This document shows, one piece after another, positions 16,196-20,011 of a DNA stretch of 53,733 bases; within the stretch, counting starts at the first letter, position 1; every line of letters begins with the position of its first letter. Source of the stretch: a virus (lineage: Duplodnaviria; Caudoviricetes); the IMG/VR virus record IMGVR_UViG_3300027126_000252, positions 1 through 53,733 of that record; one strand, given 5' to 3'. The notes under the pieces are model-generated. The model had not been told where the DNA came from, did no database searches, and saw nothing but the letters and a program-made list of their open reading frames with translations. A program made the position numbers and the translations under genes.

Positions 16196-17203
16196 TTATA
16201 TACTATACAATTTAAAATTAGAATCTAGTTTAATCATTCTATCCCTAATTGTCTTTATAGATTCATCACCTATATCTACACCTATCCAGTCCCTATTTAA
16301 CTTCTGAGCCACAGCTAAAGTGGTTCCTGACCCACAAAAGAAGTCTGCCACTAAGTCTCCTTCGTTAGATGAAGCTTTAATGATTCTTTCTAGGAGAGTT
16401 TCAGGTTTTTGGGTAGGATATCCATTTCTCTCGCTAGATTTAGGATCAACTGCTTTTATATCCCATACTGAGTCAATAGTCTTACCATCCATTCTAAATA
16501 AAACATCACTACCACAAGGGTCTCGATGATTTTCTTTTTTGAATCTTCGTAAATATCCTAAGAATCTTGTATCTTGTGATGGGTAATTACTTCCCAGGAT
16601 CTCATTATTTTCGTTGAAATAATCTTTCCATCTAGTGTAGTCAACAGTTTCACCTATAACACCATCCTTTAATAAATTGAAATTATAAACTTTTGATTTG
16701 ACATAAAAAAGAATATAGTCATGTTTTCTAGGGAAGTATTCTTTTACTTGTCCTTGATATGTTTGATAGTGCCAAATTATTTCATTCCTAAAATTACTCT
16801 CTCCAAATATCTCATTCAGCATTAATCTTATATATATGTTAGTACGATAATCTACATGAACATAGATACTTCCTGTATCTTTTAATAACAAACTCATCAG
16901 ATACAATCTCTCATAGATAAACTGTAAATAATCATCTAAAGTGAATTTATCTGTATAGGCGAAATTACCATCTTTAGTTTTAAAATCAAGCCCAGTAAGG
17001 TAAGGTGGATCAATATAGATAAGGTCTATCTTACCTTTATATTGCCCTAAGAGGCTAACCATAGCATCTAGGTTATTACCTTTGATGAGTAAACCCTTAT
17101 TAGAAGGTGGGATTAGAGAATTAGACTTTATATCTTCTATTAATCTTAAATCTTTAGGAGATTCTAAATCAGGCACTACTTTATCTTTTATCTCAAATCT
17201 CAT
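16196..17203 (-). CDS. Beta-class amino (N6-A or N4-C) DNA methyltransferase, array copy 4
   Basis: IYIDPPY (motif IV) ... variable region ... YPTQKP ... DFFCGSGTT (motif I). Confidence 0.92.
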
Positions 17204-18198
17204 TTAAGTTCCTTTATCTGAAAATTAGAATCCAGCTTAATCATTCTATCTCTAATAGTCTTTATAGATTCATCTCCTATATCTACACCTATCCAGTTTC
17301 TATTTAACTTTTGAGCAACGGAGATTGTTGTCCCTGACCCACAAAAGAAATCAGCTACTAAATCCCCTTCGTTAGAAGAAGCTTTAATGATTCTTTCTAG
17401 AAGAGCTTCAGGTTTTTGAGTAGGGTAACCTAATCTTTCTTTATTGCTAGAACCACCTAATATTTTTATATCATCCCACCAGTCATTTAAAGGTGGTTTA
17501 CCTCCACTAAATTCAATAGGTTGTAAATCAGATGGTAGCTTACCTGACTTTACTGCATTGTTGTATTTATCCCAATCAAATACTGTTGCCATCTTTTTAG
17601 ATAGATTTACATTATATCCTTTCCTTTTACCACTCTCAAAAGTCTTTAAAGAACCCTCAGTAGGATTCCCATATTGAACATTAAAAGTATTATTCTCCGA
17701 TTTTACATAGTAAAGAATATAATCATGTTTATTACAAAACCTTTTGATTTTTGAAGGCATCCCCCTGTAACACCATATAATCTCATTTCTAAAATTATTT
17801 TCCCCAAATATCTCATTTAAAATTAAGCGAAGATACATATTAGTCCGATAATCTACATGAACATAAATACTTCCAGTGTCTTTTAATAGCAGGTGCATTA
17901 CATATATTCTCTCATAGATAAACTGTAAATAATCACCTAAAGTGAATTTATCTGTATAAGCGAAATTGCCTTCTTTAGTTTTAAAATCAAGTCCAGTAAG
18001 ATAAGGTGGGTCTATGTAGATAAGGTCTATTTTCCCTTTGTATTGATCTAAGAGACTGACCATAGCATCGAGATTATTACCTTTAATAAGTAAACCTTTA
18101 TTTGTGTTCTCTTTACTAGACTTTATATCCTCTATTAAATCTAATTCTTTAGGTGATTCTAAATCAGGTACTACTTTATCTTTTATTTCAAATCTCAT
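17200..18198 (-). CDS. Beta-class amino DNA methyltransferase, array copy 3
   Basis: Same motif order: DPPY / YPTQKP / [12 protein letters not shown] overlap with both neighbours. Confidence 0.92.
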
Positions 18199-19115
18199 TT
18201 AAGTTCCTTTATCTGAAAATTAGAATCTAGATTAACCATCCTATCCTTGATGGTTTTTATGGACTCTTCACCCATATCTACCCCTACCCAGTCCCTATTT
18301 AACTTCTGAGCTACAGCTAAAGTCGTACCTGATCCACAAAAGAAGTCTGCCACTAAATCACCTTCGTTAGAAGAAGCTTTAATGATTCTTTCTAGGAGAG
18401 CTTCAGGCTTTTGAGTGGGATAACCTAAAAGTTCGTTTTTTAACCTTCCCACAGGTGTTATATCAAACCACCAATCTTCTAATATCTTACCTTTATTTTC
18501 TAATTCATCTAAAGAGACATTACTGTTTGAAGTTTTAAACCCCAACCCACCTCTCCCATGTAAACCTGATTTATGTGGGATTCTTTGAATATTAAATTGT
18601 GTATATTTAGTCTTTGCATAAAAGAAAATAGAGTCATGTTTCCTAGAAAAATAGTCTTTAGTATTTGAGGGTCCTGAGTAACACCATATAATCTCATTCC
18701 TAAAATTACTCTCTCCTAGTATCTCATCTAGTATCAATCTTATATATGGACTTGTTCTATAATCTACATGAACATAAATGCTCCCTGTGTCTTTTAATAA
18801 CAAGTGCATTACATATATTCTCTCATAAATAAACTGTAAATAGTCATCTAAAGTGAATTTGTCTGTATAAGCGAAATTACCATCTTTAGTTTTAAAATCA
18901 AGTCCAGTAAGATAAGGTGGATCAATATAAATAAGGTCTATTTTCCCTTTATACTCATTGAGTAGACTAACCATAACATCAAGGTTGTTGCCTTTAATAA
19001 GTAAACCTTTATTAGAAGGTGGTATTAGGGAATTAGACTTTATATCCTCTATTAATTCTAAATCTTTGGATGAATCAAGATTAGGAACTACTTTATCTTT
19101 TATCTCAAATCTCAT
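18195..19115 (-). CDS. Beta-class amino DNA methyltransferase, array copy 2
   Basis: Same motif order; ATGA overlaps. Confidence 0.92.
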   Translation of the reverse strand: MRFEIKDKVVPNLDSSKDLELIEDIKSNSLIPPSNKGLLIKGNNLDVMVSLLNEYKGKIDLIYIDPPYLTGLDFKTKDGNFAYTDKFTLDDYLQFIYERIYVMHLLLKDTGSIYVHVDYRTSPYIRLILDEILGESNFRNEIIWCYSGPSNTKDYFSRKHDSIFFYAKTKYTQFNIQRIPHKSGLHGRGGLGFKTSNSNVSLDELENKGKILEDWWFDITPVGRLKNELLGYPTQKPEALLERIIKASSNEGDLVADFFCGSGTTLAVAQKLNRDWVGVDMGEESIKTIKDRMVNLDSNFQIKELK

Positions 19116-20011
19116 TTAATTTCCTTTATCTGAAAATTAGAGTCAAATTTAATCATTCTATCCCTAATTGTCTTTATAGATTCATCCCCCATATCTACCC
19201 CTATCCAGTCCCTATTTAGTTTTTGAGCTACAGCTAAAGTCGTGCCGGATCCACAGAAAAAATCAGCTATTAAATCACCTTCATTAGAAGAAGCTTTGAT
19301 AATTCTTTCCAATAAAGGTTCAGGCTTTTGAGTAGGATACCCGACCTTTTCTTTACTAAAACTATTTACTAAAATAGAATTTAGAATGTCCTCTTTATTA
19401 CAATTCCATGTATCTTCAATAGCAAAACCATTACCTGTAGGAATACCTTCCCCTCTTCTAACATAAGTGGGGGGGTATGGTATATATTCTTTATTAAAAA
19501 TATAGTTATCACTTTTAGTGTAGTATAAAATGTTGTCATGGTTTCTAACCCAGTTTTTTGCTACTGATTTATATCCAGAGACCCAACCAATTCTCCATAT
19601 AATTTCTCTTTGAAAGTTCCCTGATCCAAATATCTCATCCATTATGATTTTAATATATGAACTTGTTCTATAAATACTTCCCGTATCTTTTAATAAAAAA
19701 CTCATTAAATATAGTCTCTCATATATGAATTGTAAAAAACCATCTAAAGTGAATTTATCCGTATATGCAAAATTACCGTCTTTAGTTTTAAAGTCTAATC
19801 CTGTCATATAAGGTGGGTCTATATAAATAAGGTCTATTTTCCCTTTATACTGCCCTAAGAGACTGACCATAATATCGAGATTATTGCCTTTAATAAGTAA
19901 ACCTTTATTAGTAGGCGGAATTAGACAGTTGGATTCAATATCTTCTATTAACTCAATCTCTTTAGGTGAATCAAGATTAGGATGTGCTTTATTGTCCCAA
20001 GTAAAGAGCAT
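19112..20011 (-). CDS. Beta-class amino DNA methyltransferase, array copy 1, with an in-frame 5-aa deletion in the core (possibly impaired)
   Basis: DPPY, YPTQKP and FFCGSGTT present; GSIY-----RTS lacks the VHVDY found in the other three copies. Confidence 0.85.
   Translation of the reverse strand: MLFTWDNKAHPNLDSPKEIELIEDIESNCLIPPTNKGLLIKGNNLDIMVSLLGQYKGKIDLIYIDPPYMTGLDFKTKDGNFAYTDKFTLDGFLQFIYERLYLMSFLLKDTGSIYRTSSYIKIIMDEIFGSGNFQREIIWRIGWVSGYKSVAKNWVRNHDNILYYTKSDNYIFNKEYIPYPPTYVRRGEGIPTGNGFAIEDTWNCNKEDILNSILVNSFSKEKVGYPTQKPEPLLERIIKASSNEGDLIADFFCGSGTTLAVAQKLNRDWIGVDMGDESIKTIRDRMIKFDSNFQIKEIK

Follow-up and report, generated by a model that had tools for sequence, protein, structure and literature searches.

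In the multispecific C5 methyltransferases of Bacillus phages, several recognition domains are carried in one C5 polypeptide. Such enzymes are cited as 'semi-specific orphan methyltransferases', with reference to Trautner (1996), in the text of PMC12707154. In the Type III mod genes of Helicobacter pylori, target recognition domains (TRDs) were reported to move between genes, and the movement was ascribed to recombination at 8–117 bp of similar sequence encoding the flanking motifs (account of Furuta and Kobayashi, 2012, PMC3467074). Among Bacteroides prophages, the survey in PMC10333322 describes a methyltransferase content that varies within groups and is swapped between unlike phages, which was suggested to subvert restriction. 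Here, these systems are compared with an array of four methyltransferase genes (M1–M4) at positions 16196–20011 of a 53,733-bp virus record from IMG/VR (IMGVR_UViG_3300027126_000252; this whole stretch of DNA is referred to as the window). The array is read, with a probability of roughly 0.72, as a translationally coupled operon of four orphan beta-class N6-adenine methyltransferases, in which a recognition insert would be an exchangeable cassette and the role would likely be anti-restriction.

The array resembles the H. pylori mod genes, as these are presented in the source, in being of the beta class with the recognition domain between motifs IV–VIII and X–III, in the incongruence between the trees of the TRD and of the rest of the protein, in the occurrence of homologous TRDs in distant organisms, and in an exchange ascribed to short similar DNA coding for the flanking motifs (PMC3467074). 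The exact tracts of 23–39 bp shared by the flanks in the window fall within the 8–117 bp range of H. pylori. In contrast to mod, the array is found in a phage, has no Res partner in view, encodes proteins of about half the Mod length, and is arranged head to tail with translational coupling. As in the multispecific C5 enzymes of the Bacillus phages, there are several specificities per phage without a nuclease, in the form of discrete and exchangeable modules. However, one complete N6/N4-type enzyme (PF01555, not PF00145) is used here for each specificity, and the modules are spread over a gene array. Whereas whole genes are reported to be swapped in the Bacteroides prophages (PMC10333322), the moving unit here would be the recognition insert inside a constant frame. 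Recognition-domain cassette exchange itself is therefore known, and it is seen here in a tandem array of phage orphan enzymes; no earlier account of phage methyltransferases in a tandem array with a common frame was found in the full texts searched. The closest deposited phage, the uncultured 485-kb LR745208.1, whose baseplate protein is 36% identical to that of the window across 100% of its length, also has multiple PF01555 genes in one huge genome. Its PF01555 genes, at least five in number and 278–557 aa in length, are scattered (two of them about 3 kb apart) and form no frame-sharing array, in contrast to the tandem array of the window. No DNA nearly identical to positions 15000–21200 was found by megablast among 50,697 phage records.

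Four methyltransferase genes with a common frame and different inserts

All four genes are located on the minus strand. M1, the first gene (19112–20011, 299 aa, insert type T07), M2, the second (18195–19115, 306 aa, T01), M3, the third (17200–18198, 332 aa, T04), and M4, the last, which has a distinct C-terminal tail (16196–17203, 335 aa, T02), match PF01555 (N6_N4_Mtase) with E-values of 1.3e-45, 1.2e-54, 1.5e-55, and 1.7e-57 and scores of 156.5, 186.0, 189.0, and 195.4 bits, respectively. These scores are above the gathering cut-off of 26.7 bits, and all four genes pass it in a six-frame search as well. Neighboring genes overlap by the four nucleotides ATGA at each junction, where the coding strand reads ...AAATGAGATTT. 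When the proteins are cut at NEIIW and GYPTQKP, the variable segments comprise 84 aa in M1 (19343–19594, minus strand), 86 aa in M2 (18426–18683, minus strand), 114 aa in M3 (17431–17772, minus strand), and 116 aa in M4 (16424–16771, minus strand). Four head-to-tail, ATGA-joined beta-class methyltransferases had been proposed from the sequence before this analysis (hereafter the original prediction), and the open reading frames (ORFs) lie exactly where it had placed them; its borders of the variable segments agree with the motif-based cuts to within a few bases.

The membership and the fold of the four proteins are likewise established. All of them match phrog_67 (E 2e-53 to 8e-66), and the beta-class motif order is present, with DPPY at residues 65–68 and FxGxG near residue 290 of M4. 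Adenine enzymes usually carry DPPY. They also make up the nearest solved relatives, yet N4-cytosine enzymes match too (8s9m, 1boo). By sequence, the N half is closest to Type III Mod subunits and the C half to MboIIA, RsrI, CcrM, and M.BceJIV, and the nearest solved relatives include the Mod-type methyltransferase 6k0w and EcoP15I Mod. A fold search with the AlphaFold2 (AF2) model of M4 (predicted local distance difference test, pLDDT, 90.4; predicted template modeling score, pTM, 0.87) returned RsrI, CcrM, MboIIA, and EcoP15I Mod at E 1e-17 to 1e-19. In this model, the variable segment consists of a loop (146–160), a semi-conserved core strand (161–168), and a discrete insert (about 169–260), and the helix that follows (268–278) opens the conserved C half. 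The variable segment is thus modeled as the TRD region, and the placement of the variation at the beta-class TRD position in the original prediction agrees with this model.

No NCBIfam equivalog cut-off was passed by the proteins, the best scores being 121 against 292 for NF008572 (PRK11524) and 93 against 830 for NF050803 (CcrM). The lengths of 299–335 aa differ from the full-length Mod architecture of about 600 aa, and the array proteins align to just three separate stretches of the 618-aa (6k0w) and 644-aa (4zcf) chains. The four enzymes would accordingly be relatives of the Type III Mod subunits of half their size. An adjacent res gene, as expected for a Type III Mod, was not found in the window; ResIII (PF04851) gave zero matches there and matches in all of the control genomes. 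As the original prediction had noted, no restriction endonuclease adjoins the array, the neighbors being a PurA-like gene and a GMP-reductase/IMPDH-family gene. An SNF2 helicase (26584–29529) was considered as a Res partner and rejected, as it is an intein-interrupted SNF2 protein and not ResIII. No D12 or C5 (PF00145) methyltransferase match was obtained in the window. Tandem Repeats Finder returned no simple-sequence repeats in 15900–20300, and inverted repeats flanking the inserts were not found, only three weak pairs (19–24 nt, 79–84% complementarity) being located elsewhere. Phase variation and invertible switches are excluded because neither simple repeats nor useful inverted repeats are available.

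The N- and C-terminal parts of the four copies, hereafter the frame, had been described as nearly identical in the original prediction. This holds for the proteins, which share pairwise identities of 0.82–0.88 in the frame (N part from residue 31 plus C part), but not for the DNA. The flanks share only 75–85% nucleotide identity, with synonymous divergence (dS) of 0.62–1.73 and a ratio of nonsynonymous to synonymous divergence (dN/dS) of 0.04–0.21, and the longest exact tract common to the flanks of any two copies is 23–39 bp. Since dS is around 1 with low dN/dS and the exact tracts are short, the frames are old copies whose similarity reflects purifying selection on the protein rather than recent homogenization of the DNA. 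Neither flank dS nor the exact tracts give any sign of recent gene conversion or exchange within the array of the window. The variable segments are barely alignable, as predicted, with a pairwise protein identity of just 0.27–0.45, a nucleotide identity of 0.46–0.54, and an insert dN of 0.54–0.84.

Mosaic evolution of frames and inserts

Relatives of the frame were searched with M4 and with the N frame of M2 as queries. About 49 metagenomic cluster representatives have the N frame at an identity of at least 58% (E≤2.4e-45), and the next matches fall to E 1.5e-33. The tree set held 51 rows, comprising 47 representatives and the four proteins of the window, of which P0121 and P0122 (without the C-terminal motif) and P0050 (N-truncated) were dropped, and the remaining 48 were cut at the two motifs. 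The variable segments of these 48 rows fall into 17 types (single linkage, 55%), and their pairwise identities are bimodal, most pairs sharing 20–40% and the others more than 50%. The frame tree consists of four clades that are well supported in the Shimodaira–Hasegawa-like approximate likelihood ratio test (SH-aLRT): ScA, the window-like clade (support 95, at a node that includes ScD; 19 rows, eight insert types), ScB (97; seven rows, six types), ScC (100; 14 rows, 12 types), and ScD (99; six rows, five types). Nine of the ten insert types with more than one member are found in at least two of the four frame clades. In approximately unbiased (AU) tests, the frame data reject the insert types T03, T01, T02, and T04 as clades (p = 3e-54, 5e-57, 2e-37, and 7e-89), and the insert data reject ScB, ScD, and the four proteins of the window as clades (p = 2e-34, 1e-116, and 3e-10). 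When clade labels are placed on the insert tree, 20 changes are needed (minimum 3), compared with a mean of 22.5 after shuffling, and 23 of 200 shuffles are as low. Frame and insert phylogenies are thus strongly incongruent at the family level, which is the outcome expected in the original prediction, where separate trees of flanks and variable segments had been suggested as a check. It had also expected the flanks of the four genes to be monophyletic, and this failed; they form no exclusive clade, and the frames group with relatives on other contigs that carry the same insert.

Evidence for the movement of an insert comes from T03. This insert is 100% identical over 83 aa in P0012 and P0013 of ScA, P0036 of ScB, and P0064 of ScC, the frames of which are 70–75% identical. 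In ScB and ScC, NEIIW marks the start of the identical block, which in ScA extends a few residues further upstream, and the block ends inside the near-invariant GYPTQKPE...GSGTT block, so that the breakpoints at the protein level fall at NEIIW and within the latter block. Each combination of T03 with a frame was seen at least twice (the P0064 cluster has three members on five contigs, and ScA and ScB have two variants each), which argues against single chimeric assemblies. Further pairs show inserts that are more alike than their frames, namely P0035 and P0048 (90% in the insert, 72% in the frame), P0017 and P0059 (86%, 73%), P0041 and P0060 (86%, 73%), and M2 and P0006 (100%, 88%). Close family relatives of the inserts in the window, on other frames or in other lineages, are 100% identical for M2, 99% for M3, 82% for M4, and 86% for M1.

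Homologous inserts are also found outside the family. The M1-type insert occurs in 114 such proteins with a median identity of 65.5%, compared with about 31% in the N cores and 57% in the C cores, and many of these relatives are fused to HNH, Mrr-like, or GIY-YIG-type or other nuclease domains according to Pfam. The M4-type insert occurs in 70 outside proteins (median identity 56%, vs. 42% in the N core). Relatives of the M3-type insert are rarer: of 1.84 billion representative clusters, 45 match it at E≤1e-3. The outside proteins are 50–71% identical in the insert, and those with a long N-core match are 28–37% identical in the N core. For the M2-type insert, three outside matches (41–50%) were found among proteins already fetched, a set gathered for other purposes. 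The expectation that the inserts would be nearest to different bacterial methyltransferases is therefore supported for M1, M3, and M4, as the relatives of each of these inserts form a set of their own among unrelated enzymes of cells or mobile elements. A further observation concerns a contig binned to a Bordetella metagenome-assembled genome (L132), where a methyltransferase gene at 1269–1967 (minus strand) encodes a protein 64% identical to M3 over residues 90–319, including the M3-type insert. This gene appears to be an instance of the rare M3-type insert in a cellular or prophage setting.

The content of the array also varies among relatives. A metagenome scan yielded only two loci, L007 and L008, as close DNA relatives. 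A search of IMG/VR gave two distant loci, and a degenerate motif pattern gave 102 stretches, with best matches just 54% identical. In the GTDB genomes, one locus at 27% was found, and the degenerate motif pattern gave at least 120 stretches, the best among the pattern matches listed being the 64% match of L132 over part of M3. In L007, the neighbor gene (about 90% nucleotide identity) and the intergenic or promoter region (97%) are as in the window. Compared with the DNA of M1, the first methyltransferase gene of L007 is 68–85% identical in the N frame, 37–57% in the insert, and 78–92% in the C frame, and the insert in this first slot is of a type other than that of M1. The L007 contig stops just past the ATGA overlap that opens a second gene, and the locus thus holds at least two genes. 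In L008, the array consists of exactly two genes, which carry two further insert types and are located amid unrelated genes. A 90-aa ORF of L008 (2111–2383, plus strand), with predicted hydrophobic stretches and an acidic tail, overlaps the last methyltransferase gene by ATGA in place of the PurA-like gene. P0014 and P0017 are listed on one 36,245-bp contig.

Two proteins are mosaics of the genes in the window. P0008 corresponds to M3 up to the C frame and then to M4 until the end, which would be the product expected of an unequal crossover deleting M4. P0006 joins the N-tip of M1, an M4-like N frame, the insert of M2 together with about 20 residues before it, and the tail of M4. The first-gene N-tip is present in both of the first genes that adjoin the neighbor gene (window and L007), and the last-gene tail was seen once, in the window. 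P0006 and the nine-member cluster of P0009 bear both signatures and, judging from these termini, are probably single-gene loci. The variation in L007, L008, P0006, and P0008 answers the question of array content in relatives that had been raised together with the original prediction. Mosaic evolution of the family is thereby established, and both insert swapping and array expansion are supported at the family level by the protein sequences compared.

Alternative explanations and proposed function

Based on these comparisons, crossovers in the DNA coding for the flanking motifs (NEIIW upstream and GYPTQKPE...GSGTT downstream) may move inserts between frames and between phages, and unequal crossovers between neighboring paralogs may shrink or enlarge the array, while the array in this genome would be old and stable. 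With a common catalytic and S-adenosylmethionine-binding frame and an insert of its own for recognition, each enzyme most likely methylates a different sequence.

Several points weigh against this reading. The evidence for exchange consists of protein sequences of relatives, many from contigs of 1–3 kb, and chimeric assembly across conserved motifs could possibly explain single cases. Insert labels are not fully random on the frame tree, as 25 changes are required (minimum 9), compared with a mean of 29 after shuffling, and only one of 200 shuffles is as low. The groups for the tree tests were named post hoc, after the data had been seen, the alignment of inserts across types is poor, and the insert tree test gave long-branch warnings; the identity tables show the same mosaic signal without any tree. 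In the window itself, dS is around 1 and exact identity between the flanks reaches 39 bp at most; no recombination between the copies is evident, nor would it be efficient. The insert DNA has a guanine-plus-cytosine (GC) content of 0.31, similar to 0.33 for the phage, and there is no pointer to recent import here because the inserts have the base composition of the phage itself. The idea that the conserved flanks act as recombination arms to import or swap specificities is therefore supported by the incongruent trees and the relatives at the family level, but not in this genome, where the arms are weak and the insert GC is phage-like. As the window covers about 17% of the phage genome, a Res partner might lie elsewhere, and M1 of this record may be defective (see below). 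Solved homologs of the inserts at E≤1 in the PDB numbered zero, zero, two (both weak), and zero; the specificities are unreadable from the inserts because no solved homolog is available, and an attempt to read them off solved structures was dropped.

Two histories without exchange between phages were considered. The four genes may be ancient paralogs subject to concerted evolution only, with inserts inherited vertically, flanks gene-converted within genomes, and no movement between phages. Such co-divergence would give insert identities close to frame identities between clades, and most insert types agree with it (T01, 0.62–0.74 in the insert vs. 0.67–0.84 in the frame; T04, 0.72 vs. 0.71); in addition, within ScB and within ScC, frames that carry many different insert types hardly differ from one another (branch lengths 0–0.07). 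However, the T03 inserts of three frame clades are 100% identical whereas the frames share 70–75%, three further pairs have inserts 13–18 points closer than their frames, and the inserts of M1, M3, and M4 are far closer to outside methyltransferases than the N cores are. In the one genome with DNA, flank dS values of 0.6–1.7 also speak against recent conversion, and concerted evolution alone is thus regarded as improbable. Alternatively, the genes may simply have been duplicated in tandem, their middle parts diverging fast and without exchange, in an array private to this phage, which would explain why head-to-tail genes have a common frame. This history is hardly tenable, as close relatives of all four inserts are found on other frames or lineages, the insert data reject the four of the window as a clade, and the insert dN and nucleotide identity given above indicate that the segments are not alignable derivatives of one another. 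The exchange of inserts between frames is therefore preferred to both histories.

With regard to function, the operon may methylate the DNA of the phage itself at several motifs and thereby allow escape from several host restriction systems. An anti-restriction role is considered most likely because orphan methyltransferases of phages are generally read in this way, as in the discussions of PMC12707154 and PMC10333322. The methylation may instead serve as a mark on phage or host DNA (in regulation, replication, packaging, or discrimination by a phage nuclease), or the array may be the modification half of a phage restriction system with its nuclease encoded beyond the window. The small part of the genome covered by the window, the Type III Mod subunits as the nearest solved relatives, the co-orientation of the array with nucleotide-metabolism genes, and the frequent fusion of M1-insert relatives to HNH, Mrr-like, and GIY-YIG-type nuclease domains would fit such roles. 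On the other hand, no ResIII match was obtained in the 53.7 kb, restriction endonucleases adjoin 100% of the putative Type III methyltransferases in the Bacteroides survey as reported in PMC10333322, and the turnover of inserts and array size in close relatives fits an arms race better than a fixed housekeeping mark. A function other than anti-restriction is thus unlikely, and protection from restriction remains the favored role.

In EcoP15I Mod2, one subunit recognizes the DNA, and methylation is carried out by the other. Beta-class enzymes have been argued to need a dimer with the same division of labor (as put forward in PMC7544214). The common frame of the array may be a dimerization platform on which the paralogs pair freely as heterodimers and form one modular enzyme pool, a tentative idea that is more doubtful than probable. 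A model of M3 with M4 scored 0.80 (best of three controls, 0.00), and as like dimers have been solved, this score indicates likeness rather than binding; the mark set for it is reached by 58 of 80 solved complexes and two of 110 mismatched pairs. Contact agreement between the runs was at least 94%, and the partner pLDDT was at least 84. The modeled interface is symmetric and involves mainly frame residues 1–9 and about 87–145, in addition to the semi-conserved head and end of the variable segment. If such heterodimers form, a catalytically damaged copy, e.g., M1 of this record, could lend its reading head to the active site of a partner, and it would be explained why the frames are 82–88% identical with dN/dS of 0.04–0.21 despite dS around 1.

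If inserts are exchanged as proposed, the family would be a plug-and-play system in which one compact catalytic frame, about 220 residues long, is combined with interchangeable heads of 80–150 residues with clean borders, at least 17 in number, and the size of the array changes through simple crossovers. A large phage could then track shifting host restriction by collecting specificities rather than by one broad modification. TRD movement, described so far in bacterial Type III and Type I systems, would then extend to orphan enzymes of phages and include unequal crossover between members of a tandem array. The heads could serve as a panel for learning how beta-class TRDs read DNA, as no insert has a solved relative, and for building methyltransferases of chosen specificity.

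The M1 deletion and the setting of the array

An alignment gap reveals a 15-nt in-frame deletion in M1, located approximately at 19666–19674 (minus strand). It removes five residues of the core beta-strand 107–117 (M4 numbering), including a conserved Asp that is invariant in all 65 rows of one alignment (A4) and at least 90% conserved in another (A5). In P0355, a protein of another assembly that otherwise matches M1 with 100% identity, the five residues are retained, and the 127,584-bp contig of P0355 also encodes a protein identical to M2. The deletion is therefore either a strain variant or an assembly error, and the lineage normally carries four intact genes. The AF2 model of M1 still draws the strand at the deletion, with a pLDDT of 80 in this block compared with 94–95 in M4, and it is not decisive on damage.

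The window has a GC content of about 33% and an estimated completeness of 17% (CheckV), and its phage genes include those for baseplate wedge proteins, a DnaB-type helicase, and an SNF2 helicase. This completeness together with these genes indicates that the record is a fragment of a very large (jumbo) tailed phage. Downstream of M4, at a distance of 25 nt, a PurA-like adenylosuccinate synthetase gene (15106–16170, minus strand, 354 aa) has its own ribosome-binding site. No terminator-like site was found between M4 and this gene or inside the array, and the PurA-like gene is probably the last gene of the transcription unit of the array. Upstream of M1, a divergent intergenic region of 84 bp (20012–20095), which is 97% identical in L007, separates the array from the GMP-reductase/IMPDH-family gene (20096–21082, plus strand; PF00478, E 1.7e-92), the divergent neighbor that serves as the synteny anchor with L007. 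A promoter scan placed a promoter-like site, TTAGCA-18-TACAAT, before M1 (20068–20039, minus strand); the promoter-like sites in the region are not above chance, 24 being found vs. 29.5 expected. A PurZ pathway with a 2-aminoadenine genome was rejected, as the PurA-like neighbor matches cellular PurA (E 1e-61) far better than it matches PurZ (E 1.6e-17). The two purine-interconversion genes that flank the array look like auxiliary nucleotide metabolism and not like a 2-aminoadenine pathway.

Elsewhere in the window, four very large ORFs (1345, 1011, 1264, and 1437 aa) are located in 193–7270 (minus strand), 33196–36990 (plus strand), and 38625–42938 (plus strand), and their PHROG matches are faint tail or tail-fiber ones at most, or none. 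The 981-aa SNF2-family helicase at 26584–29529 (minus strand) contains an intein that carries a LAGLIDADG homing-endonuclease domain, and its Pfam matches are Intein_splicing, LAGLIDADG_3, SNF2-rel_dom, and Helicase_C.

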